Of a stretch of 64,000 bases of DNA, positions 39,074 to 54,865 are shown one piece after another. Source of the DNA: TPA_inf: Saccharomyces (taxonomy: Eukaryota); assembly GCA_000146045.2 (NCBI GenBank), contig BK006938.2:832001-896000 (forward strand), written 5' to 3'. Each line of letters opens with the position of its first letter. Positions within the stretch are counted from its first letter, which is position 1. The notes under the pieces were generated by a model, which saw only the letters and a program-made list of their open reading frames with translations, did not search any database and was not told where the DNA came from. Both the position numbers and the translations under genes were made by a program.

Positions 39074-39301
39074 ATGAGCCAACAACAAGGTTACTACCAA
39101 CAAGGACCCCCACAGCAAGGTTATTATCAACAAGGTCCACCACAACAAGGTTATTATCAACAAGGTCCACCGCAACAGGGTTATCCTCAGCAGCAACCAG
39201 TCTATGTCCAACAAGGTCAACCAAAGGAGGAAAGCTGCTTGGACAGTTGTTTAAAATGTTTGTGTTGTTGTTTCTTATTAGAATTGGTATGCGATAACTG
39301 A
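39074..39301 (+). CDS. YDR210W: YDR210W, a small CYSTM-family protein of 75 aa with three [10 protein letters not shown] repeats and a Cys-rich C-terminal tail-anchor.
   Basis: [76 protein letters not shown] 30-bp unit is tandemly repeated three times at about 39086-39175. Confidence 0.8.
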
Positions 39302-39450
39302 TTCGTTTGTTCAAGAAGTGGTCAATATAAAAAACGAAATCACATAGCCTTTCATCTATGCTGCGAAAGACTGTATAATTACTTTTAAGCAAAAATGTAT
39401 ATAATATGATGGGATCGTTACGTTGGAACAAGAATTGACCATCGTTCATC

Positions 39451-39748
39451 TGTTGTTGAAATAAAATTTGAAGTTATTCGTCGTACTAGTATCCTATCAC
39501 ATGCGGTGTAAGAAATCACATTGTATGAGAAGCAATTATCTAATTTAATGGACGCTGAAGTTCAAGAATTGGTAATGTGACAGGATAATTAATTAACAGC
39601 ATATAAAATAAAAGAATAATATTTTTATTATATAAAAATATCGATCACTCTTGTGGATTTCTAAATCCTCGAAGAGAACTTTTAATGCATTCTATATGCC
39701 TAATAATAAAGTCGCTATCGAAAATATAATATCTATGCTTATCTATAT
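39451..39748 (+). repeat. A divergent, degenerate solo Ty LTR (delta-like), about 300 bp, in plus orientation.
   Basis: It starts with tgttgttgaaataaaa (compare the canonical delta start TGTTGGAATAGAAATCAAC). It has internal blocks alignable to delta (…taatttaatggacgctgaagttcaagaattggtaatgtgacaggataa… and ggatttctaaatcctcgaagagaactt) but carries many substitutions and indels. Confidence 0.55.
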
Positions 39749-39820
39749 TGAGAAATGGATGAAATTTGAGATAATTGTTGGGATTCCATTGTTGACAAAG
39801 GCTATGATATTAGGTGTAAA
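39749..39820 (-). repeat. Left, 3'-terminal fragment of an older solo delta LTR in minus orientation, which the Ty2 insertion split.
   Basis: Read on the plus strand it is tgagaaatggatgaaatttgagataattgttgggattccattgttgacaaaggctatgatattagg..., the reverse complement of the canonical delta 3' end (…CCTAATATTATAGCCTTTATCAACAATGGAATCCCAACAATTATCTCA…TTCTCA). It is flanked on the left by tatat (39744-39748), and the same pentamer recurs at 46045-46049. Confidence 0.75.
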
Positions 39821-40152
39821 TGTTGGAATAAAAATCAACTATCATCTACTAACTAGTATTTACGTTACTAGTATATTATCATATACGGTGTTAGAAGATG
39901 ACGCAAATGATGAGAAATAGTCATCTAAATTAGTGGAAGCTGAAACGCAAGGATTGATAATGTAATAGGATCAATGAATATTAACATATAAAACGATGAT
40001 AATAATATTTATAGAATTGTGTAGAATTGCAGATTCCCTTTTATGGATTCCTAAATCCTTGAGGAGAACTTCTAGTATATCTACATACCTAATATTATAG
40101 CCTTAATCACAATGGAATCCCAACAATTACATCAAAATCCACATTCCCAACA
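39821..40152 (+). repeat. Ty2 5' LTR (delta), 332 bp.
   Basis: It begins tgttggaataaaaatcaactatcatctactaactag. The gag ATG at 40112 lies inside the LTR, 41 nt before its end. The LTR is followed by the PBS tggtagcgcc. Confidence 0.88.
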
Positions 40153-41428
40153 TGGTAGCGCCTATGCTTCGGTTACTTCTAAGGAAGTCCCATCAAATCA
40201 AGATCCGTTAGCCGTTTCAGCTTCCAATTTACCGGAATTTGATAGAGATTCCACTAAGGTTAATTCTCAAGAAGAGACAACACCTGGGACATCAGCTGTT
40301 CCAGAGAACCATCATCATGTCTCTCCTCAACCTGCTTCAGTACCACCTCCACAGAATGGACAGTACCAACAGCACGGCATGATGACCCCAAACAAAGCTA
40401 TGGCCTCTAACTGGGCACATTACCAACAACCATCTATGATGACGTGTTCACATTATCAAACGTCACCTGCGTATTATCAACCGGACCCACACTATCCGCT
40501 GCCACAGTATATCCCACCGCTGAGTACTTCCTCACCTGATCCAATCGATTCACAGGATCAACACTCTGAAGTACCTCAAGCTAAGACAAAGGTGAGAAAT
40601 AATGTCTTACCACCACACACTTTAACATCAGAAGAAAACTTTTCTACATGGGTTAAATTTTACATCAGATTTTTGAAGAACTCTAATCTCGGTGACATTA
40701 TTCCAAATGACCAGGGTGAAATCAAAAGACAAATGACTTATGAAGAACATGCGTATATATACAATACCTTCCAAGCATTTGCCCCATTTCATTTATTGCC
40801 AACATGGGTAAAACAAATTTTAGAAATTAATTATTCTGACATCCTTACAGTCCTTTGTAAAAGTGTGTCCAAAATGCAAACTAACAATCAAGAATTAAAA
40901 GATTGGATAGCTCTTGCCAACCTTGAGTACAACGGAAGTACATCTGCTGATACATTTGAAATTACAGTCAGCACGATCATTCAAAGGCTAAAAGAAAACA
41001 ATATCAATGTTAGCGACAGATTGGCCTGTCAACTAATACTTAAAGGTCTATCCGGTGATTTCAAATACCTACGTAATCAATATCGTACCAAAACGAACAT
41101 GAAACTTTCCCAATTATTCGCTGAAATTCAATTAATATATGACGAAAATAAAATCATGAATCTAAATAAACCGTCCCAATACAAACAACACAGCGAATAC
41201 AAAAATGTTTCTCGCACATCTCCAAACACGACTAACACGAAGGTTACAACTCGTAATTATCATAGAACAAATAGTTCAAAACCAAGAGCAGCAAAAGCTC
41301 ACAATATTGCTACATCCAGTAAATTCTCAAGGGTGAACAGTGATCACATTAATGAATCAACCGTTTCATCACAATACTTAAGCGATGACAACGAACTTAG
41401 TCTTAGGCCAGCAACAGAAAGAATCTAA
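40112..41428 (+). CDS. Ty2 TYA (Gag), 438 aa (recalled as YDR210W-A).
   Basis: This ORF is in the track, and it ends with [15 protein letters not shown]. Confidence 0.9.
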
Positions 41429-44400
41429 GCCAACACGCACAATAGACTCGAATGACGAACTACCTGATCACCTTCTTATTGATTCAGGAGCTTCGCAAAC
41501 GCTTGTCAGATCAGCCCATTATTTACACCATGCAACACCCAATTCTGAAATAAACATAGTCGATGCTCAAAAACAAGACATTCCTATAAATGCCATTGGT
41601 AATCTTCACTTCAACTTTCAGAACGGCACCAAAACATCAATAAAAGCACTACACACACCAAACATAGCCTATGATCTATTAAGTTTGAGTGAGCTGGCTA
41701 ACCAAAATATTACTGCCTGCTTTACCAGAAACACTTTAGAAAGATCGGATGGTACAGTACTAGCTCCCATAGTCAAACATGGAGACTTTTACTGGTTATC
41801 TAAAAAATACCTAATTCCTTCGCACATTTCAAAGCTAACAATAAACAACGTCAACAAAAGCAAAAGCGTAAATAAATATCCATATCCGTTAATACATCGA
41901 ATGCTTGGACATGCTAACTTCCGAAGTATTCAGAAGTCTCTTAAGAAGAATGCAGTTACATATTTGAAAGAATCGGATATTGAATGGTCTAACGCTAGCA
42001 CATATCAATGTCCTGACTGTCTAATCGGCAAAAGCACGAAACATAGGCATGTCAAAGGATCACGACTAAAGTACCAAGAATCATATGAGCCTTTTCAGTA
42101 CTTGCATACCGATATATTTGGTCCTGTACATCACTTACCGAAAAGTGCACCTTCTTACTTTATATCGTTTACAGATGAGAAAACCAGATTCCAATGGGTG
42201 TACCCATTACACGACCGTCGTGAAGAATCTATCCTCAATGTTTTTACATCGATATTAGCATTTATTAAGAACCAATTCAATGCTCGCGTTCTAGTTATCC
42301 AGATGGATCGTGGCTCCGAGTACACTAACAAAACTCTTCATAAGTTCTTTACGAACAGAGGTATTACTGCATGCTATACAACCACGGCAGATTCTAGAGC
42401 ACACGGTGTCGCTGAACGATTAAATCGTACTTTATTAAACGATTGTCGCACACTGCTTCATTGCAGTGGTCTACCAAATCATCTATGGTTCTCAGCAGTC
42501 GAATTTTCTACTATAATCAGAAATTCATTAGTCTCACCAAAAAACGATAAATCTGCCAGACAACATGCAGGTTTAGCTGGACTGGACATTACTACTATAC
42601 TACCTTTCGGTCAACCGGTTATAGTTAACAACCATAATCCCGACTCGAAAATACATCCTCGTGGCATTCCAGGTTACGCCTTACATCCGTCACGAAACTC
42701 TTATGGCTATATTATCTATCTTCCATCCTTAAAAAAGACAGTAGATACTACCAATTACGTTATATTACAAAACAATCAAACGAAATTGGACCAGTTCGAC
42801 TACGATACACTCACTTTTGATGATGATCTCAATCGTTTAACAGCCCATAACCAATCTTTTATTGAACAAAATGAAACGGAGCAGTCATATGATCAAAATA
42901 CAGAATCTGATCATGACTATCAATCGGAGATTGAAATAAACTCTGATCCTCTAGTGAACGATTTCTCGTCCCAATCATTGAACCCTTTACAATTAGACAA
43001 GGAACCAGTCCAAAAGGTACGTGCACCAAAAGAAGTTGATGCCGACATATCTGAATACAATATTCTTCCATCTACTATACGATCTCGTACACCCCATATC
43101 ATTAATAAAGAGAGTACCGAAATGGGTGGTACCATTGAATCAGATACTACTTCACCTAGACACTCGTCTACCTTCACTGCACGAAACCAAAAGCGACCTG
43201 GTAGTCCCAATGATATGATTGATTTGACCTCACAGGATAGAGTTAATTATGGACTTGAAAACATCAAAACTACACGTTTGGGTGGTACGGAGGAACCATA
43301 TATTCAACGAAATAGTGATACAAATATCAAATACAGGACTACAAATAGTACGCCCTCAATAGATGACCGTTCGTCCAACAGTGAATCCACTACTCCCATC
43401 ATCTCCATAGAAACAAAGGCTGTATGTGATAATACACCCTCCATTGATACGGATCCGCCAGAATATCGATCTTCTGACCATGCGACTCCTAATATAATGC
43501 CTGACAAATCCTCAAAAAATGTTACGGCTGATTCTATTCTTGACGACCTCCCACTTCCTGACTTAACCCATAAATCTCCTACGGACACTTCTGATGTTGC
43601 AAAAGATATTCCACACATACACTCTCGTCAGACTAATTCCAGTTTGGGTGGTATGGATGATTCTAATGTTCTGACTACTACCAAAAGTAAGAAAAGATCA
43701 TTAGAAGATAATGAAACTGAAATTGAGGTATCCCGAGACACATGGAATAATAAGAATATGAGAAGTCTGGAACCACCAAGATCGAAGAAACGCATAAATT
43801 TAATTGCAGCAATAAAAGGAGTGAAATCGATCAAACCAGTTCGAACGACCTTAAGATATGATGAAGCAATTACATATAATAAAGACAACAAAGAAAAAGA
43901 CAGATATGTTGAAGCTTATCATAAAGAAATTAGCCAACTATTGAAAATGAACACTTGGGATACAAACAAATATTATGATAGAAATGACATAGATCCTAAA
44001 AAAGTAATAAACTCAATGTTTATATTTAACAAGAAACGTGATGGTACACACAAAGCTAGATTTGTTGCAAGAGGCGACATTCAACACCCCGATACATATG
44101 ATTCTGATATGCAATCCAATACCGTACATCACTATGCACTGATGACGTCATTGTCAATCGCATTAGACAATGACTATTATATCACACAGCTGGACATATC
44201 CTCTGCTTACTTATATGCTGATATCAAAGAAGAATTATACATAAGACCTCCACCACATTTAGGTTTGAATGATAAGTTACTACGTTTGAGAAAATCACTC
44301 TATGGTTTGAAACAAAGTGGTGCAAACTGGTATGAAACCATTAAATCATATTTAATAAATTGTTGCGACATGCAAGAAGTTCGCGGATGGTCATGCGTAT

Positions 44401-45425
44401 TTAAGAATAGTCAAGTAACAATTTGCTTATTCGTTGACGACATGATTTTATTTAGCAAAGACTTAAATGCAAATAAGAAAATCATAACAACACTCAAGAA
44501 ACAATACGATACAAAGATAATAAATCTGGGTGAAGGTGATAACGAAATTCAGTACGACATACTTGGATTAGAGATCAAATATCAAAGAAGCAAGTACATG
44601 AAATTAGGTATGGAAAAATCCTTGACAGAAAAATTACCCAAACTAAACGTACCTTTGAACCCAAAAGGAAAGAAACTTAGAGCTCCAGGTCAACCAGGTC
44701 ATTATATAGACCAGGATGAACTAGAAATAGATGAAGATGAATACAAAGAGAAAGTGCATGAAATGCAAAAGTTGATTGGTCTAGCTTCATATGTTGGATA
44801 TAAATTTAGATTTGACTTACTATACTACATCAACACACTTGCTCAACATATACTATTCCCCTCTAGGCAAGTTTTAGACATGACATATGAGTTAATACAA
44901 TTCATGTGGGACACTAGAGATAAACAATTAATATGGCACAAAAACAAACCTACCAAGCCAGATAATAAACTAGTCGCAATAAGCGATGCTTCATATGGTA
45001 ACCAACCATATTACAAGTCACAAATTGGTAACATTTTCCTACTCAACGGAAAAGTGATTGGAGGAAAGTCGACAAAGGCTTCGTTAACATGCACTTCAAC
45101 TACAGAAGCAGAAATACACGCAGTCAGTGAAGCTATACCGCTATTGAATAACCTCAGTCACCTTGTGCAAGAACTTAACAAGAAACCAATTATTAAAGGC
45201 TTACTTACTGATAGTAGATCAACGATCAGTATAATTAAGTCTACAAATGAAGAGAAATTTAGAAACAGATTTTTTGGCACAAAGGCAATGAGACTTAGAG
45301 ATGAAGTATCAGGTAATAATTTATACGTATACTACATCGAGACCAAGAAGAACATTGCTGATGTGATGACAAAACCTCTTCCGATAAAAACATTTAAACT
45401 ATTAACTAACAAATGGATTCATTAG
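40112..45425 (+). CDS. Ty2 TYA-TYB (Gag-Pol) polyprotein made by a programmed +1 ribosomal frameshift, 1770 aa (recalled as YDR210W-B), with protease, integrase, reverse transcriptase and RNase H domains.
   Basis: The frameshift heptamer CTTAGGC lies at 41402-41408, 18 nt upstream of the gag stop. The +1 frame stays open to the TAG at 45423-45425. The pol product contains DSGAS (protease), an integrase HHCC plus D,D35E region, and the RT motif FVDDM. Confidence 0.88.
41402..41408 (+). other. Ty +1 programmed frameshift site, CUU-AGG-C.
   Basis: An exact match to the canonical Ty1/Ty2 slippery heptamer lies in the gag/pol overlap. Confidence 0.85.
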
Positions 45426-45447
45426 ATCTATTACATTATGGGTGGTA

Positions 45448-45779
45448 TGTTGGAATAAAAATCAACTATCATCTACTAACTAGTATTTACGTTACTAGTA
45501 TATTATCATATACGGTGTTAGAAGATGACGCAAATGATGAGAAATAGTCATCTAAATTAGTGGAAGCTGAAACGCAAGGATTGATAATGTAATAGGATCA
45601 ATGAATATTAACATATAAAACGATGATAATAATATTTATAGAATTGTGTAGAATTGCAGATTCCCTTTTATGGATTCCTAAATCCTTGAGGAGAACTTCT
45701 AGTATATCTACATACCTAATATTATAGCCTTAATCACAATGGAATCCCAACAATTACATCAAAATCCACATTCTCTACA
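45448..45779 (+). repeat. Ty2 3' LTR (delta).
   Basis: tgttggaataaaaatcaactatc…atccacattctctaca. It is preceded by the PPT gggtggta. Confidence 0.88.
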
Positions 45780-46044
45780 GTAAAGAATATACTGGAAGTT
45801 CTCCTCGATGATATAGGAATCCTCGAAATGGAATCTATATTTCTACATACTAATATTACGATTGTTCCTCATTCCGTTTTTATATGTTTCATTATCCTAT
45901 TACATTATCAATCCTTGCACTTCAGCTTCCTCTAACTTCGATGACAGCTTCTCATAACTTATGTCATCATCTAACACCGTATATGATAATATATTGATAC
46001 TATAACTATTAGTTGATAGACGATAGTGGATTTTTATTCCAACA
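45780..46044 (-). repeat. Right, 5' fragment of the same older solo delta (minus orientation) that the Ty2 insertion split.
   Basis: gtaaa|gaatatactggaagttctcctcgatgatataggaatcctcgaaatggaatctatatttctacatactaatattacg…ttattccaaca is the reverse complement of the delta 5' two-thirds. It ends in ccaaca at 46039-46044 and is followed by tatat. Joined with 39749-39820 it reconstitutes one delta of about 330 bp with a TATAT target-site duplication. Confidence 0.75.
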
Positions 46045-46100
46045 TATATTCACTCGTTTCTCCGAATGAAAATAAATAACATCTATTGACTATTCCTTTT

Positions 46101-46302
46101 TGTTGATATATCATCATATGTGGTGAAAGAAGATGACAAAAAAATTGAGAACAAGAAATGCCAAGGTGGATAAAATAATATGATAATAAGCAACAATATA
46201 TAAAATGAAAGAGGAAATAATATCATCATTACTTAGAAAATACGACTCATCTCTGTGTCCCCTAGGAAAAGTTCAAGTATATCCTAAACCTGATACTATG
46301 GC
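46101..46302 (+). repeat. Left fragment of a second divergent solo LTR (plus orientation), which the Ty1 insertion split. Its right fragment is at 52221-52276.
   Basis: It starts tgttgatatatcatcatatgtggtgaaagaagatgac…, with delta-like blocks. The segment after the Ty1 (atggcctctttaacactaatatcccgacaattttcccaaaattcaaagaattctca) aligns to the canonical delta 3' end (ATAGCCTTTATCAACAATGGAATCCCAACAATTATCTCAACATTCACCCATTTCTCA). Confidence 0.55.
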
Positions 46303-46636
46303 TGAGAAATATGTGGGTAATTAGATAATTGTTGGGATTCCATTGTTGATAAAGGCTATAATATTAGGTATACAGAATATACTAGAAGTTCTCCTCGAGG
46401 ATTTAGGAATCCATAAAAGGGAATCTGCAATTCTACACAATTCTATAAATATTATTATCATCGTTTTATATGTTAATATTCATTGATCCTATTACATTAT
46501 CAATCCTTGCGTTTCAGCTTCCACTAATTTAGATGACTATTTCTCATCATTTGCGTCATCTTCTAACACCGTATATGATAATATACTAGTAACGTAAATA
46601 CTAGTTAGTAGATGATAGTTGATTTTTATTCCAACA
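46303..46636 (-). repeat. Ty1 3' LTR (delta), on the minus strand.
   Basis: The sequence is highly similar to the Ty2 LTRs in reverse orientation. Confidence 0.88.
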
Positions 46637-46658
46637 TACCACCCATAATGTAATAGAT

Positions 46659-49600
46659 CTAATGAATCCATTTGTTTGTTAATAGTTTAAATGTTTTTAT
46701 CGGAAGAGGTTTTGTCATCACATCAGCAATGTTCTTCTTGGTCTCGATGTAGTATACGTATAAATTATTACCTGATACTTCATCTCTAAGTCTCATTGCC
46801 TTTGTGCCAAAAAATCTGTTTCTAAATTTCTCTTCATTTGTAGACTTAATTATACTGATCGTTGATCTACTATCAGTAAGTAAGCCTTTAATAATTGGTT
46901 TCTTGTTAAGTTCTTGCACAAGGTGACTGAGGTTATTCAATAGCGGAATAGCTTCACTGACTGCGTGTATTTCTGCTTCTGTAGTTGAAGTGCATGTTAA
47001 CGAAGCCTTTGTCGACTTTCCTCCAATCACTTTTCCGTTGAGTAGGAAAATGTTACCAATTTGTGACTTGTAATATGGTTGGTTACCATATGAAGCATCA
47101 CTTATTGCGACTAGTTTATTATCTGGCTTGGTAGGTTTGTTTTTGTGCCATATTAATTGTTTATCTCTAGTGTCCCACATGAATTGTATTAACTCATATG
47201 TCATGTCTAAAACTTGCCTAGAGGGGAATAGTATATGTTGAGCAAGTGTGTTGATGTAGTATAGTAAGTCAAATCTAAATTTATATCCAACATATGAAGC
47301 TAGACCAATCAACTTTTGCATTTCATGCACTTTCTCTTTGTATTCATCTTCATCTATTTCTAGTTCATCCTGGTCTATATAATGACCTGGTTGACCTGGA
47401 GCTCTAAGTTTCTTTCCTTTTGGGTTCAAAGGTACGTTTAGTTTGGGTAATTTTTCTGTCAAGGATTTTTCCATACCTAATTTCATGTATTTACCTCTTT
47501 GATATTTGATTTCTAAGCCAAGTATGTCGTACTGAATTTCGTTATCACTTTCACCCAGATTTATTATCTTTGTATCGTATTGTTTCTTGAGTGTTGTTAT
47601 GATTTTCTTATTTGCATTTAAGTCTTTGCTGAACAATATCATATCATCAACGAATAAGCAAATTGTTACTTGACTATTCTTAAATACGCATGACCATCCA
47701 CGAACTTCTTCCATACCACACTGTTTTATCAGGTATGATTTGATAGTTTCGTACCAGTTCGCTCCACTTTGTTTCAATCCATAAAGTGATTTCTTCAAAC
47801 GTATCAACTTATCATTCATTCCTAAATGTGGTGGAGGTCTTATGTATAATTCTTCTTTGATGTCTGCATACAAATATGCCGAAGATATGTCTAATTGTGT
47901 AATATAGTAGTTATTGTCTAATGCAAGTGACAGGGATGTCATCAACGCATAATGATGTACAGTGTTGGATTGCATACCTGTATCGTACGTATCAGGATGC
48001 TGAATGTCACCTCTTGCAACAAATCTAGCTTTATGAGTTCCGTCACGTTTCTTGTTGAAGATAAACATTGAGTTTATTACTCTTTTAGGGTCTATTTCTT
48101 TTCTGTCATAATATTTGTCAGTGTCCCAAGTATTCATTTTCAATAGTTGGTTGACTTCTTTGTGGTATGCTTCGATATATTTTTCCTTTTCTTTAATATC
48201 TTTATTATAGGTGATTGCCTCATCGTATCTTAAAGTTGTCCGTATTGGTTTGATTGATTTTACTGCTTTTACAGCTGCAATCAGGTGAATTCGTTTCTTC
48301 GATCTCGGAGGTTCTAAACTACGCATATTCTTAGTATTCCATGTGTCTCGTGATACCTTAATTTCAGTTTCATTATCTTCTAATGATCTTTTCTTACTGT
48401 TGATAGTAGTATAGGCATTAGAGTCACCAATACCACCCAAACTGGAATTAGTTTGATGAGAATTTATCGGTGGGAGTTCTTTAAATGGGTCAGGGAATTC
48501 GGTAGGAGATTCTGGAGGTAGATCAGGGAGTGGGAGATCAGCGATGATAGATTCCTCGGTATTCTGTTCAGAAACAGTAGTTGGCGTTTTGATAGGAACA
48601 ATATTGTGCGATGAATTATTTTCCGGTGGAGAAGCATCGATTGAAGGTGAACGGTGTATAATCCTTTTCTCAGTCTCTTGGTCACTTATCTGCGGAACAG
48701 TTTTGTTGTTGGTACCACCCGTACTGGATATTGGTACGTTTGTATGATTAGTCTCATTTTCACTGTACGAGTCTGAGTGTCTGAAATCTTTAGATTTACT
48801 GGCGTACGACGACTCATGTGTGTTAGATTGGGACATGGGAGCAAGTAAAGGAACATCTAATCTATGCATACCACCCGAATCGGTACTCTCGATATCGGAA
48901 ATTTGGGGGGTGCTAGATCTCTTCTTAGATGGAAGAATATTAGATTCAGATATGTTGGGGTCAACTTCTCTGGGTGCGCGAATATTGGTTTTAGAAACAC
49001 GTTTCGAATCTTCAGTATGAGTTGACGGGGGTGTGGAATCGGTTGGACTCACAGCTTTTGAAAGGACATTTCTCGGTTGCTCAGGATATAGTTCAATATC
49101 AGATTGAAAGTCATGGTCTGATTCTATGTTAAGATCATTGGATTGTTGGATCTCATTTGACGCAATGAACGATTGATATGAAGCAGTTAAACGGTTTAAG
49201 TCTTCATCGAAAGTGAGTGCGTCGTAATTGAATTGATCTAATCTGGAGTCCTTGCCCTGAAGAATAACATAGTTAGTTGTATCTACTGTCTTCTTTAAGG
49301 ATGGAAGATAGATGATATATCCATAAGAGTTTCGAGACGGATGTAGAGCGTAGCCTGGGATGCCACGAGGATGTATTTTGGAGTTAGGGTTGTGATCATT
49401 GACGATAACAGGTTGACCGAAAGGTAACAAAGTACTGATATCAAGTCCTGCCAAGCCAGCATGTTGTCTTGCAGATTTTTTGCTTTTAGGTGAAGCTAGT
49501 GAATTTCTCACAATAGTAGAAAATTCGATTGCAGAGAACCATAAATGGTTCGGTAAACCACTACATTGCAGTTGAGTACGGCAGTCATCTAATAAGGTAC

Positions 49601-51927
49601 GGTTTAGCCGTTCAGCGACTCCATGTGCTCGGGAATCCGCTGTGGTTGTATAGCATGGAGTTATACCATTTTTTTCAAGGAATTTATGGAGAGTTCTGTT
49701 AGTATACTCAGAACCACGGTCCATTTGTATAACCAAGACACTGGCCTGAAACTGGTTTTTAATAAAAGCTAGTATCGTAGTAAAAACATCGAGGATAGAG
49801 TCCTCGCGACGGTCGTGTAATGGATAAACCCAACGGAATTTTGTTGTCTCATCAGTAAATGAGATGAAATAGGATGGTGCACTATTTGGTAGGTTGTGAA
49901 CTGGACCAAATATGTCAGTATGTAGGTATTGAAAGGGTTCGTATGAATTTTGGTATTTTAGTCGTGAACCTTTGATATGTCTGTGTTTGGTGCTTTTGCC
50001 GATTAAACAATCAGGACATTGATAGTCAATAGCACTAGACCAGTCGACATCTGATTCGTTAAAATACGTGATGGTGTTATTTTTAAGTGAGTATCGAATT
50101 GTCTGTGCATTGGCATGCGCAAGCATTCGATGAATGAAAGGATAAGGATATTTGCGTGTACTTTCACTTGTATGGACATTATTGATGGTGGGTACGGAGA
50201 TATTTGATGGAAGCAAGTACTTTTTAGATACCCAGTAAAAGTCTCCATATTTTACGATAGGTGCAAGTACAGTGCCGTCAGATCGTTCTAAGACGTTTTT
50301 GGTAAAGCATGCTGTGATATCTACTGCAGCCAATTCATTCAAACTGAGTAAGTCATAGGCTATGTTAGGAGTGTGCAATACCTTTATTGATGTTTTGGTG
50401 TTGTCCTGGAAGTGAAATTGTAGGTCACCAATAGCGTTAATTGGTATATTTCTTTTTTGAGCATCAACTACGTTTATGTCAGGATTAGATGATGCTGAGT
50501 GTATGTGATGAGCAGATCTTATAAGGGTTCGTGATGCTCCTGAATCGAGAAGGAGGTGTCCAGGGAGTTCATCATCAGAATGATTAGTATGATTTACTGT
50601 AGATTCAGTAAGTTTCTGGCCTAAGATGAAGGTCGTGCTTATTGTTCAATTGAATCGGTTCAGTAGTTGATTTACTGATGGAATCGTTGTCCGTGCTGGG
50701 AGAGTTAATAGATGTGGATACATTGTGAGCCCTGGCTGTTTTCGATTTCGAATTATTTGTTTTTTGAGGATTCCGAGCTATAACTTTGGGTTTGGTTGTA
50801 TTCGTATAGCTGCGAGAATCATTCTTCTCATCACTCCGATTTCTCCTGTAATTAGGTTTGCTGTTTCTCGATCCCTGTTGTTCTTCATAAATAGCATGGA
50901 TATCTAAGAACAGTTCAGCGACTGTCATATTTAGATGTCGATGACGTGTGTAGCGTAAAAATTTATATTCGCCAGATAGACCTCTCATAATTAATTGGCA
51001 TGCGACCTTGTTATTGATATGAATGCCATTATTGTTCAGTCTGTCGATAATGTTTGTGACTTTTGTTTCAAATGCATCTGCAGGTGTACTGCCATTATAT
51101 TGCAAATTTGCCAGGGTCACAATGTCGTTTGCCTCTTGGGTATCAGATTGCATTTTTTCAATACTTTTGGAAAGAATTTTCATGATATCCGTATAATCAA
51201 CGGATAGGATGTCTTTGACCCAGGTAGGTAGGAATTGAGAGGGAGCAAATATTTGAAAAGTGTTATACAAGAAGGTGAGTTCATCATCAGTGATCTGACG
51301 TACGGGTTTTCCGTTTACTGTCGGAATAATACCACCGAGATTCGAGTTTTGTAAAAATTTGATGTATGTTTTAACCCAATTTGGAAAGTCATTAGGTGAG
51401 GTTAACATTGGTGGTGGTCTGACATATTTTTTAGTGGATGTCATATCAGAGTCCGCTGAGGATGAATCAGTAAATGTATTACCTGACTCAGGTGATGGAG
51501 TGCTCAGAGGCGTTCCAACTGATGATGGATACTGCGGAAACTGTGATTGTGGCCCAGGTGGAAAGTACATAGGCGACATTTGATAAGGTGTATACGGAAT
51601 CATAGATGGGTGTCCGTAAAATGACCAACCAGATGGATTGGCTTGGTTTTGGGTCATCATGCACTGCTGTGGGTACGGCCCATTCTGTGGAGGTGGTACT
51701 GAAGCAGGTTGAGGAGAGGCATGATGGGGGTTCTCTGGAACAGCTGATGAAGCAGGTGTTGTTGTCTGTTGAGAGTTAGCCTTAGTGGAAGCCTTATCAT
51801 ATTCTTGAATTTTGGAAGCTGAAACGTCTAACGGATCTTGATTTGTGTGGACTTCCTTAGAAGTAACCGAAGCACAGGCGCTACCATGAGATATATGTGG
51901 GTAATTAGATAATTGTTGGGATTCCAT
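46659..51927 (-). CDS. Ty1 TYA-TYB (Gag-Pol) polyprotein made by a +1 frameshift, 1755 aa, on the minus strand.
   Basis: The reverse complement of the frameshift heptamer, gcctaag, lies at 50619-50625. The pol frame stays open to the stop at 46659-46661. The protein ends …[12 protein letters not shown], identical to the Ty2 copy. Confidence 0.88.
50605..51927 (-). CDS. Ty1 TYA (Gag), 440 aa.
   Basis: This ORF is in the track, and it ends with …[13 protein letters not shown]. Confidence 0.9.
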
Positions 51928-52220
51928 TGTTGATAAAGGCTATAATATTAGGTATACAGAATATACTAGAAGTTCTCCTCGAGGATTTAGGAATCCATAA
52001 AAGGGAATCTGCAATTCTACACAATTCTATAAATATTATTATCATCGTTTTATATGTTAATATTCATTGATCCTATTACATTATCAATCCTTGCGTTTCA
52101 GCTTCCACTAATTTAGATGACTATTTCTCATCATTTGCGTCATCTTCTAACACCGTATATGATAATATACTAGTAACGTAAATACTAGTTAGTAGATGAT
52201 AGTTGATTTTTATTCCAACA
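51887..52220 (-). repeat. Ty1 5' LTR (delta), on the minus strand.
   Basis: The gag ATG at 51927 lies inside the LTR. The LTR ends, in its own orientation, next to the PBS. Confidence 0.88.
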
Positions 52221-52276
52221 ATGGCCTCTTTAACACTAATATCCCGACAATTTTCCCAAAATTCAAAGAATTCTCA
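52221..52276 (+). repeat. Right, 3' fragment of the divergent solo LTR that the Ty1 insertion split. It ends ttctca, 85 bp upstream of the tRNA gene.
   Basis: See the entry for 46101-46302. Confidence 0.55.
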
Positions 52277-52360
52277 GAAAGAGCTATTTTTTTTTTTAAT
52301 AAAATTATTAGTACTAATTCCAGTATAAATAACAATGTTATTTACGTCTCTTTCGAAAAT

Positions 52361-52493
52361 GCTCGTGTAGCTCAGTGGTTAGAGCTTCGTGCTTATAGCA
52401 ACATTCGGTTTCCGAAGTTTCTGTGCCAAAGACCTTTCAAACAGGCCTTTAAAAGCAACGCGACCGTCGTGGGTTCAAACCCCACCTCGAGCA
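52361..52493 (+). tRNA. tRNA-Ile (anticodon UAU) gene with a 60-nt intron (recalled as tI(UAU)D).
   Basis: The 5' exon gctcgtgtagctcagtggttagagcttcgtgcttata is at 52361-52397, the intron at 52398-52457, and the 3' exon acgcgaccgtcgtgggttcaaaccccacctcgagca at 52458-52493. The spliced product folds as a 73-nt cloverleaf with anticodon loop cTTATAa. It has an A box (TAGCTCAGTGGTTAGAG) and a B box (GGTTCAAACCC). The only yeast tRNA with a 60-nt intron is Ile-UAU. Confidence 0.93.
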
Positions 52494-52509: not shown

Positions 52510-52572
52510 CACACGCGTTTGCAACATGCCCGTATTACATGAGCTTATTTGACTTTAGATGGTTTTCAGTTC

Positions 52573-52594
52573 TTTTTTTTTTTTTTTTTTTTTT
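52573..52594. repeat. Poly(dT) tract of about 22 nt between the tRNA-Ile gene and GCD6.
   Basis: Uninterrupted T run, 133 bp upstream of the GCD6 ATG. Confidence 0.95.
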
Positions 52595-52726
52595 CAGTAG
52601 ATTAATGCGAAGAGTTAAATCACCAATTCAAAGATGGCAGATGGACCACCTTGTGGGATAAGTATAAAAATAACTAAAAGTGGTCTTGTGTTAAAAATAG
52701 AATAGAAACCACTCATAAGGCAAAAG

Positions 52727-54865
52727 ATGGCTGGAAAAAAGGGACAAAAGAAAAGTGGACTAGGCAACCATGGAAAGAACTCTGATATGGATGTTGAAGA
52801 TCGTCTCCAGGCCGTTGTCTTGACAGACTCTTATGAAACTAGGTTTATGCCACTGACAGCTGTCAAGCCAAGGTGTTTGCTGCCACTGGCTAACGTACCT
52901 CTCATTGAATACACCTTAGAATTTTTGGCTAAGGCTGGCGTACATGAAGTTTTCTTAATTTGCTCTTCTCATGCCAACCAAATTAATGACTATATTGAGA
53001 ATTCTAAGTGGAACTTGCCTTGGTCTCCATTTAAAATTACCACCATTATGTCTCCAGAAGCTAGATGTACGGGTGATGTTATGAGAGATCTAGATAATAG
53101 AGGTATCATTACTGGAGATTTTATTTTAGTCAGTGGTGATGTATTGACTAACATCGATTTCAGCAAAATGCTAGAATTTCACAAAAAAATGCATTTGCAA
53201 GATAAAGATCACATCTCGACAATGTGTTTGAGCAAAGCGAGTACCTATCCAAAAACAAGAACTATTGAGCCTGCCGCATTTGTCTTAGACAAATCCACCA
53301 GTAGGTGTATTTATTACCAAGATTTACCATTACCAAGCTCTAGAGAGAAGACTTCCATTCAGATTGACCCAGAATTGTTGGATAATGTCGATGAATTTGT
53401 CATAAGGAATGACCTCATCGATTGTAGAATTGACATTTGTACATCTCATGTACCTTTGATATTTCAAGAAAATTTTGACTACCAATCATTAAGGACAGAC
53501 TTTGTTAAAGGTGTCATTTCAAGCGATATATTGGGAAAGCATATATATGCCTATTTGACGGACGAATATGCTGTAAGAGTTGAAAGTTGGCAAACTTACG
53601 ACACCATTTCTCAAGACTTTTTAGGTAGATGGTGTTATCCCTTGGTCTTAGACTCTAACATACAGGACGATCAAACGTATTCTTATGAATCAAGACATAT
53701 ATACAAGGAAAAAGACGTTGTTTTGGCCCAATCCTGTAAAATTGGTAAGTGCACTGCAATTGGATCAGGAACAAAAATCGGAGAGGGTACGAAAATTGAG
53801 AATTCCGTGATTGGAAGGAACTGCCAAATCGGTGAAAATATTAGAATCAAGAACAGTTTCATTTGGGATGACTGTATCATCGGAAATAACAGTATAATTG
53901 ACCATTCATTAATTGCCTCTAATGCCACGTTAGGGAGTAATGTACGCCTAAATGATGGCTGTATAATTGGTTTCAACGTTAAAATTGATGATAATATGGA
54001 TTTAGATAGAAACACAAAAATATCTGCCAGTCCATTAAAAAATGCCGGCTCAAGAATGTATGATAATGAAAGCAATGAGCAGTTTGACCAAGACCTTGAT
54101 GATCAGACACTAGCCGTTTCTATTGTTGGAGATAAGGGTGTTGGTTATATTTACGAAAGCGAGGTGTCTGACGATGAAGATAGTTCTACAGAAGCCTGCA
54201 AAGAAATAAACACTTTGAGTAACCAATTAGATGAGTTATACTTAAGTGACGATTCAATTTCTTCCGCCACTAAAAAGACAAAGAAAAGAAGAACGATGTC
54301 TGTCAATAGTATATACACGGATAGAGAAGAAATTGATTCTGAATTTGAGGACGAAGATTTTGAGAAAGAAGGTATTGCCACCGTGGAGCGTGCTATGGAA
54401 AACAATCATGATCTTGACACAGCATTATTAGAATTGAACACCTTGAGAATGAGTATGAACGTGACATATCATGAGGTGAGAATAGCAACAATAACTGCAT
54501 TATTGAGAAGAGTTTACCACTTTATTGCAACTCAAACATTAGGTCCCAAGGACGCTGTGGTGAAGGTTTTTAATCAGTGGGGACTGTTGTTCAAGAGACA
54601 AGCCTTTGATGAAGAAGAGTATATTGATTTGATGAACATCATAATGGAAAAAATTGTAGAACAGAGTTTTGACAAACCGGATTTGATTCTATTTAGTGCA
54701 TTGGTTTCTCTATACGATAATGACATAATTGAGGAGGATGTCATTTATAAATGGTGGGATAATGTTTCTACTGACCCTCGCTATGATGAAGTCAAGAAAT
54801 TAACTGTAAAGTGGGTTGAGTGGTTACAGAATGCTGACGAAGAATCTTCCTCAGAAGAGGAATAA
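52727..54865 (+). CDS. GCD6: GCD6 (YDR211W), catalytic epsilon subunit of the eIF2B guanine-nucleotide exchange factor, 712 aa.
   Basis: The 712-aa ORF has an N-terminal nucleotidyl-transferase-like domain, hexapeptide (left-handed beta-helix) repeats in the middle (…IGRNCQIGENIRIKNSFIWDDCIIGNNSII…) and a C-terminal W2 domain with acidic/aromatic boxes (…WVEWLQNADEESSSEEE). Confidence 0.95.
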   Translation: MAGKKGQKKSGLGNHGKNSDMDVEDRLQAVVLTDSYETRFMPLTAVKPRCLLPLANVPLIEYTLEFLAKAGVHEVFLICSSHANQINDYIENSKWNLPWSPFKITTIMSPEARCTGDVMRDLDNRGIITGDFILVSGDVLTNIDFSKMLEFHKKMHLQDKDHISTMCLSKASTYPKTRTIEPAAFVLDKSTSRCIYYQDLPLPSSREKTSIQIDPELLDNVDEFVIRNDLIDCRIDICTSHVPLIFQENFDYQSLRTDFVKGVISSDILGKHIYAYLTDEYAVRVESWQTYDTISQDFLGRWCYPLVLDSNIQDDQTYSYESRHIYKEKDVVLAQSCKIGKCTAIGSGTKIGEGTKIENSVIGRNCQIGENIRIKNSFIWDDCIIGNNSIIDHSLIASNATLGSNVRLNDGCIIGFNVKIDDNMDLDRNTKISASPLKNAGSRMYDNESNEQFDQDLDDQTLAVSIVGDKGVGYIYESEVSDDEDSSTEACKEINTLSNQLDELYLSDDSISSATKKTKKRRTMSVNSIYTDREEIDSEFEDEDFEKEGIATVERAMENNHDLDTALLELNTLRMSMNVTYHEVRIATITALLRRVYHFIATQTLGPKDAVVKVFNQWGLLFKRQAFDEEEYIDLMNIIMEKIVEQSFDKPDLILFSALVSLYDNDIIEEDVIYKWWDNVSTDPRYDEVKKLTVKWVEWLQNADEESSSEEE

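Follow-up and report, generated by a model that had tools for sequence, protein, structure and literature searches.

The integrase of the yeast retrotransposon Ty1 is tethered by subunits of RNA polymerase III (Pol III) to nucleosomal DNA upstream of Pol III genes, where integration proceeds through 5-bp staggered cuts. For Ty1 and Ty2, an integration window of roughly 1 kb has been described and attributed to integrase tethering by Pol III subunits on nucleosomal DNA (PMC5911963). A cluster of such elements is found on chromosome IV of Saccharomyces cerevisiae S288C, beside GCD6 and upstream of the tRNA-Ile(UAU) gene tI(UAU)D. This locus is already known, since its reference-genome annotation, the nesting of its Ty2 and its functional role have all been published, and the mitotic recombination hotspot HS3 maps to its inverted Ty2/Ty1 pair (St Charles and Petes 2013, PMC3616911). 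Here, we analyzed the locus in a stretch of 64,000 nucleotides (contig BK006938.2 of assembly GCA_000146045.2, positions 832,001 to 896,000 of the forward strand), which is called the window below and whose own numbering is used for all features. The analysis revealed that the locus is very probably a hotspot for Pol III-targeted integration of Ty elements, situated upstream of tI(UAU)D, with five integrations of the Ty1/Ty2 family within about 650 bp of target DNA.

Window positions were converted to the sacCer2 coordinates of Carr et al. by adding 832000 and subtracting 2, and this conversion recovered the full-length elements YDRWTy2-2 (871819-877777) and YDRCTy1-2 (878301-884218) as well as the solo long terminal repeats (LTRs) st43+, st45- and st44+. 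With later insertions removed in the computation, the target sites lie 84, 135, 374 (or 84), 388 and 653 bp upstream of the tRNA gene. The sites, at 84-653 bp, are thus within the roughly 1 kb of the integration window, and the match to the integration window upstream of Pol III genes, which a first-pass annotation of the sequence had proposed, was upheld. In the present sequence, the gap between the outer end of the Ty1 and the tRNA gene is 140 bp, as had been read, and that of the innermost, divergent LTR is 84 bp, for which 85 bp had been given. The first-pass annotation had also counted three generations of integration; our analysis gives five insertion events in all, arranged in a left nest that is probably three deep (degenerate LTR, then minus delta, then Ty2) and a right nest that is two deep (divergent LTR, then Ty1).

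Repeat finding detected two 6-kb elements in inverted orientation, each carrying long terminal direct repeats. The full-length Ty2 YDRWTy2-2 occupies 39821-45779 on the plus strand (5959 bp), as delimited from repeats, open reading frames (ORFs), directly read boundaries and Pfam domains, and the full-length Ty1 YDRCTy1-2 occupies 46303-52220 on the minus strand (5918 bp) on the same kinds of evidence. The Ty2 is bounded by the target-site duplication GTAAA, whose left copy (39816-39820) forms the last 5 nt of the left piece of a solo delta LTR on the minus strand, and whose right copy was read at the boundary (45780-45784). The Ty1 is likewise bounded by ATGGC, with the left copy at 46298-46302 forming the last 5 nt of the left piece of a divergent delta LTR and the right copy read at the boundary (52221-52225). 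The minus delta (chrIV_st45- of Carr et al., '1-nested' in REannotate) consists of a 72-bp left piece at 39749-39820, which aligns to LTR positions 332-261, and a 260-bp right piece at 45785-46044, which was identified from repeats and alignment and covers positions 260-1. Excising the Ty2 together with one GTAAA copy gives a minus delta of 332 bp, TGTTGGAATA...TTTCTCA, which matches the canonical Ty1 LTR end to end (TGTTGG...TTTCTCA, reference coverage 1-338) with 93.4% identity and unbroken across the junction. The minus delta is itself flanked by TATAT, at 39744-39748 inside the degenerate LTR and at 46045-46049 by boundary reading. An old minus delta with a TATAT duplication, split by a full-length Ty2 with GTAAA, is what had been read at first, and this description held at every end and every duplication copy. 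Compared only with the LTRs of the window, the minus delta has a ~78% diverged look, which was rejected as misleading in view of its identity to the canonical Ty1 LTR. The Ty2 3′ LTR and the right piece of the minus delta also form a quasi-palindrome at 45448-46044, with arms of up to about 260 bp, 76-84% identity and 79 nt between the closest arms, because an LTR element inserted into an LTR of the opposite orientation.

The two oldest LTRs of the locus are plus-strand deltas, each matching the Ty1 LTR at about 74% identity locally and 68-69% globally, with a Kimura two-parameter distance (K2P) of about 0.42. The degenerate delta (chrIV_st43+) has a left piece of 328 bp at 39421-39748, aligned to Ty1 LTR positions 2-318 at 74% identity (z = 31). 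Its local alignment extends over positions 2-337, starts from 39422, which puts the true start at 39421 (CGTTGGAAC...), and passes through the TATAT site into 46050-46062. The presence of this LTR had been recognized in the first-pass annotation with a start at 39451, where a TGTTG motif occurs internally to the LTR; a similar internal TGTTG at 46101 had been taken as the start of the divergent LTR, which by alignment begins at 46064. Directly after the TATAT duplication, at 46050-46063 on the plus strand, a probable 3′ tail of the degenerate delta was found, 14 nt in length (TCACTCGTTTCTCC), whose first 13 nt fall in the expected register on LTR positions 325-337, with 10 of the 13 matching. 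From this alignment, the minus delta probably split the degenerate LTR as well, at a point 14 nt before the 3′ end of that LTR, which would yield the three-deep nest and predicts that an allele without the minus delta should read ...GCTTATCTATATTCACTCGTTTCTCC....

The divergent delta (chrIV_st44+) consists of a left piece of 239 bp at 46064-46302, on LTR positions 6-286 (z = 15.8), and a right piece of 51 bp at 52226-52276, on positions 287-338, which ends in TTCTCA and stands in exact register with the left piece; together they cover positions 6-338, and the start at 46064 is the same as that of Carr et al. When aligned alone, the 51-bp piece still falls on positions 287-338 (z = 8.7, with 0 of 1000 shuffles reaching its score), and control 51-mers from the neighbouring DNA gave background scores. 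This piece places the Ty1 inside an old delta, so the split of a divergent delta by the Ty1, as first read, stands apart from its start. At 46063/46064, the two oldest LTRs join directly in head-to-tail order without any spacer, and the downstream one lacks its first 5 nt (TGTTG). All of the 523 bp between the two Ty elements are LTR-derived (5 + 260 + 5 + 14 + 239).

The reference LTRs of Ty1-Ty5 and Ty3p were obtained from File S1 of Carr et al., and the alignment of the LTR fragments to family references, which had been suggested with the first reading, gave delta only: all five LTR types match Ty1/Ty2 delta with z = 22-102. A sigma, tau, omega or Ty3p origin was rejected, with z < 3.5 against the Ty3, Ty3p, Ty4 and Ty5 LTRs. 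The computational excision proposed at the same time was equally clear, as the split fragments rejoin into a contiguous LTR and all three duplications lie outside the LTR termini. In addition, empty alleles were sought in the supplementary strain alignments of Carr et al. 2012, in which the rows are gapped and each side was matched separately. Strains lacking the Ty2 read ...GATATTAGGT|GTAAAGAATATACTGG... with a single GTAAA copy, and strains lacking the Ty1 read ...CTGATACTATGG|CCTCTTTAACAC... with a single ATGGC copy, in both cases the predicted excision product. The nesting of the Ty1 and Ty2 insertions is confirmed by these natural empty alleles.

Both full-length elements were further characterized. 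The Ty2 LTRs (39821-40152 and 45448-45779, plus strand, 332 bp each) have TGTTGG...CA termini and match at 330 of 332 positions (99.4%). The only two differences between them are located in the last 7 nt of the unique 5′ region (U5), when 40143-40152 is compared with 45770-45779; the 5′ LTR ends in ...ATTCCCAACA and the 3′ LTR in ...ATTCTCTACA, and a generic Ty2 LTR ends in ...ATTCTCTTCA. The plus-strand ORFs encode 438 and 1346 aa, with gag at 40112-41428 and the pol open frame at 41382-45422. A CTTAGGC heptamer is positioned at element nt 1582, in the region where gag and pol overlap, pol being open in the +1 frame, and the fused Gag-Pol computed from the frame coordinates is 1770 aa in length. 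Relative to the TY2-I reference, this element is 99.3% identical in its head and 99.8% in its tail.

The Ty1 LTRs (3′ LTR at 46303-46636 and 5′ LTR at 51887-52220, minus strand, 334 bp each) likewise carry TGTTGG...CA termini and match at 333 of 334 positions (99.7%). Its minus-strand ORFs encode 440 and 1239 aa, with gag at 50605-51927, whose product matches the Ty1 Gag structure (PDB 7nlh), and the pol open frame at 46662-50645. The CTTAGGC heptamer is at element nt 1596, again within the overlap and with pol in the +1 frame, giving a fused Gag-Pol of 1755 aa by the same computation. We take 1770 aa and 1755 aa to be the standard Gag-Pol lengths of Ty2 and Ty1. In both elements, a primer-binding site (PBS), TGGTAGCGCC, complementary to initiator tRNA-Met, directly follows the 5′ LTR, and a polypurine tract, GGGTGGTA, directly precedes the 3′ LTR. 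Pfam detected TYA (PF01021), Pol_BBD (the protease-region beta-barrel), rve and RVT_2 in both, in copia order, with rve at residues 236-336 and RVT_2 at about 854-1047, so that the integrase precedes the reverse transcriptase. All of the features listed at first reading, namely intact gag and pol frames, heptamers, PBS and polypurine tract, were found in both elements, and from these intact features both look intact and may be competent for transposition.

The ends and the ATGGC duplication of the Ty1 were as first described, but not its identity as a pure Ty1. Identity to TY1-I is 96.7% for its 5′ internal sequence, and identity to TY2-I is 99.6% for the final 500 internal nt. Both of its LTRs are Ty2-type over positions 1-259, the unique 3′ region (U3), and Ty1-type over the remainder, which comprises the repeat region (R) and U5. 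Ty2-type sequence also makes up approximately the last 1.1 kb of pol, and gag and most of pol are of Ty1 type. By this sequence comparison, the "Ty1" at 46303-52220 is a Ty1/2 hybrid, and for this reason the four LTRs of the two elements are near-identical over about 260 nt. LTR divergence taken relative to the two local elements is misleading for dating, since each of them has a U3 of Ty2 type.

A pre-formed hybrid is not the only possible source of this near-identity, as gene conversion between the inverted neighbours after insertion might have produced the likeness of their LTRs and 3′ pol locally. The neighbours differ at only 3 sites over about 1.09 kb, and the inverted pair is a known recombination hotspot. 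However, both Ty1 LTRs share the combination of Ty2-type U3 and Ty1-type R/U5 that is predicted by reverse transcription of a hybrid RNA, not by a single conversion tract; the Ty2-type 3′ tail of the hybrid, at 99.6%, is as close to TY2-I as the neighbouring Ty2 is (99.8%); and Carr et al. report that 18 Ty1/2 recombinants across the genome form a clade and have breakpoints in common (PMC3511429). We therefore regard local gene conversion as improbable and the insertion of a pre-formed Ty1/2 hybrid as the better account. Far less probable still is the idea that there is no nesting at all, with the flanking pieces being independent truncated relics whose 5-bp matches arose by chance in AT-rich DNA. 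TATAT is of low complexity, the DNA is 68% A+T and the 14-nt tail is not significant alone, yet the pieces stand in exact register (332-261 then 260-1 in the minus delta; 6-286 then 287-338 in the divergent LTR). The chance of a 5/5 flank match is about 0.0013-0.0018 per site, which for three of three matches gives a joint chance of about 6e-9, and in strains without the Ty1 or the Ty2 the rejoined sequence is found exactly, with a single copy of the duplication. These natural empty alleles refute the chance reading for the insertions of both full-length elements.

Several points weigh against a history of five separate insertions with a three-deep left nest at a Pol III-directed hotspot. The tail TCACTCGTTTCTCC has z = 1.5 when taken alone, with 13% of shuffles scoring as well. 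No duplication was found around the two oldest LTRs at the several candidate boundaries tried, their flanks being CGTTA / GAATG for the degenerate and TCTCC / GAAAG for the divergent LTR; at about 26% divergence, decay of such duplications is to be expected. The four or five sites are too few for a statement on the roughly 80-bp periodicity, and integrase tethering, nucleosome periodicity and transposition competence are taken for this locus from the literature and apply to it presumptively. The two oldest LTRs may have arisen from two insertions or from one rearranged element. They might be the 5′ and 3′ LTRs of a single ancient element with its interior deleted, or might mark a junction of the tandem or 2-LTR type, given that they abut at 46063/46064 without a spacer, that the downstream LTR is missing only TGTTG and that each is without a duplication of its own. 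Their mutual K2P of 0.65, about twice what each shows against the Ty1 LTR (0.41-0.42) as expected from a common near-consensus ancestor, fits equal age as well, although such a fit does not discriminate among the possible origins. Against a single element, there is no match between the outer flanks CGTTA and GAAAG, although a duplication of 5 bp would rarely outlive such divergence; the deletion would have to extend precisely from the PBS to 5 nt within the 3′ LTR, an unlikely coincidence; and independent insertions at one nucleosomal hotspot are common near tRNA genes. On balance, a single-element origin appears unlikely, and we give slightly less credence to the oldest pair being the remains of one unusual event, whether an element with interior loss or an integration of the tandem or 2-LTR-junction type. 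If true, the fixed pair would preserve in the genome, as a fossil, the product of a non-canonical Ty integration or rearrangement.

With two separate old insertions as the preferred reading, the following history may be proposed. Two very old elements would have been reduced by LTR-LTR recombination to solo deltas, which now follow each other head to tail in plus orientation. Next, a canonical Ty1 would have landed in reverse orientation within the left old LTR, 14 bp short of its 3′ end, duplicating TATAT, and would also have collapsed to a solo LTR, the minus delta. In recent times, a Ty2 inserted into the minus delta with duplication of GTAAA, and the right old LTR received a Ty1/2 hybrid at a distance of 135-140 bp from the tRNA, with duplication of ATGGC; both recent elements are still full length, look intact and are polymorphic between strains. 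It had been claimed that the whole history can be reconstructed from the duplications alone. Only a partial order is obtained: the two nests are not mutually orderable, and a recognisable duplication is absent from both of the oldest LTRs.

A comparison with other strains had also been suggested with the first reading, and the data of Carr et al. provide it for S. cerevisiae, with fixed solo LTRs and a polymorphic Ty2 and Ty1. All three solo LTRs are fixed, st43+ and st45- each being present in 28/28 strains and st44+ in 30/30, whereas the Ty2 YDRWTy2-2, listed as full and active, occurs in 2/26 strains and the Ty1 YDRCTy1-2, also full and active, in 4/30 (Carr et al. 2012, PMC3511429). The inverted pair is absent from YJM789 (PMC3616911), and the Ty1 was found missing in Y55 and YPS128 in another paper. 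Taken with the LTR divergences, these population data set a rough timescale for the two chains of insertions. In the sacCer2 annotation, st43+ extends over 871420-871742, equivalent to window 39422-39744, and st44+ over 878062-878300 (PMC3511429).

The integration target, a Pol III gene, is located at 52361-52493 on the plus strand and was detected by Rfam as a single tRNA (RF00005, 49.3 bits). It is a tRNA-Ile(UAU) with a 60-nt intron. When the intron is placed at the canonical 37/38, a spliced RNA of 73 nt with TAT at positions 34-36 and a cloverleaf fold is obtained, so the target named at first reading was borne out by both Rfam and intron placement. With introns allowed, ARAGORN reported a tRNA-Ala(tgc) with the intron at 34/35, which was rejected in favour of the canonical placement, and the sequence is without the G3:U70 pair; this artefact arises because a GCAAC repeat at both intron ends allows an alternative intron placement. 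In its default (bacterial) mode, ARAGORN detected no tRNA here and so missed the intron-containing tRNA-Ile(UAU). Downstream of the tRNA gene and ahead of GCD6, there is a T run of about 30 nt (52563-52596). The ORF at 52727-54865 is yeast eIF2B-epsilon (GCD6), with a full-length match to PDB 6i3m_G (1617 bits). On the other side of the locus, a 75-aa ORF at 39074-39301 contains three tandem 30-nt repeats, and its product has QQGYY repeats and a Cys-rich C-terminus; we presume it to be YDR210W, which would be a protein of the CYSTM type. As only 120 bp separate the end of this ORF from the oldest LTR downstream, its 3′ flank is LTR-derived.

The inverted Ty2/Ty1 pair spans 12.4 kb, with the elements 523 bp apart. 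Its shared inverted arms (44595-45686 and 46398-47489) are about 1.09 kb in length, differ at 3 positions (99.7% identity) and lie 711 bp apart, and the overall inverted homology of the pair is 2.1 kb at 93%. These near-identical inverted arms are the structural basis of hotspot HS3, through which the pair matters for genome stability. The pair studied as HS3 is the same one, with closely spaced inverted Ty2 and Ty1 that occur in S288C and W303 but not in YJM789 (PMC3616911); the paper gives a spacer of about 100 bp, whereas in the sequence analyzed here the element ends are 523 bp apart and the DNA between them consists entirely of LTR debris. HS4 on chromosome IV and the fragile site FS2 on chromosome III are related sites with inverted Ty pairs. 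The hybrid itself resembles the Ty1/2 hybrids of Jordan and McDonald, cited by Carr et al. 2012 (PMC3511429), in which U3 and 3′ pol are likewise Ty2-type and R/U5, gag and the bulk of pol Ty1-type, and no difference from them was seen.

Overall, the locus is a textbook case of a tRNA gene serving as a landing pad for Ty elements, in which nesting and duplications record a relative chronology. The closest comparison is with Carr, Bensasson and Bergman 2012 (PMC3511429), who described the same locus with coordinates, orientations, families and a Ty2-in-minus-delta nesting that agree with ours. Their REannotate labels, '1-nested' for the minus delta and '2-nested' for the Ty2, agree with a three-deep nest. 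However, their table gives the Ty1 as un-nested ('u7') and does not list the 51-bp piece at 52226-52276 or the 14-nt tail at 46050-46063. The additions made here are accordingly small annotation refinements, namely the nesting of YDRCTy1-2 within an old delta, the inclusion of two short LTR pieces that the table lacks and the correction of two LTR boundaries.

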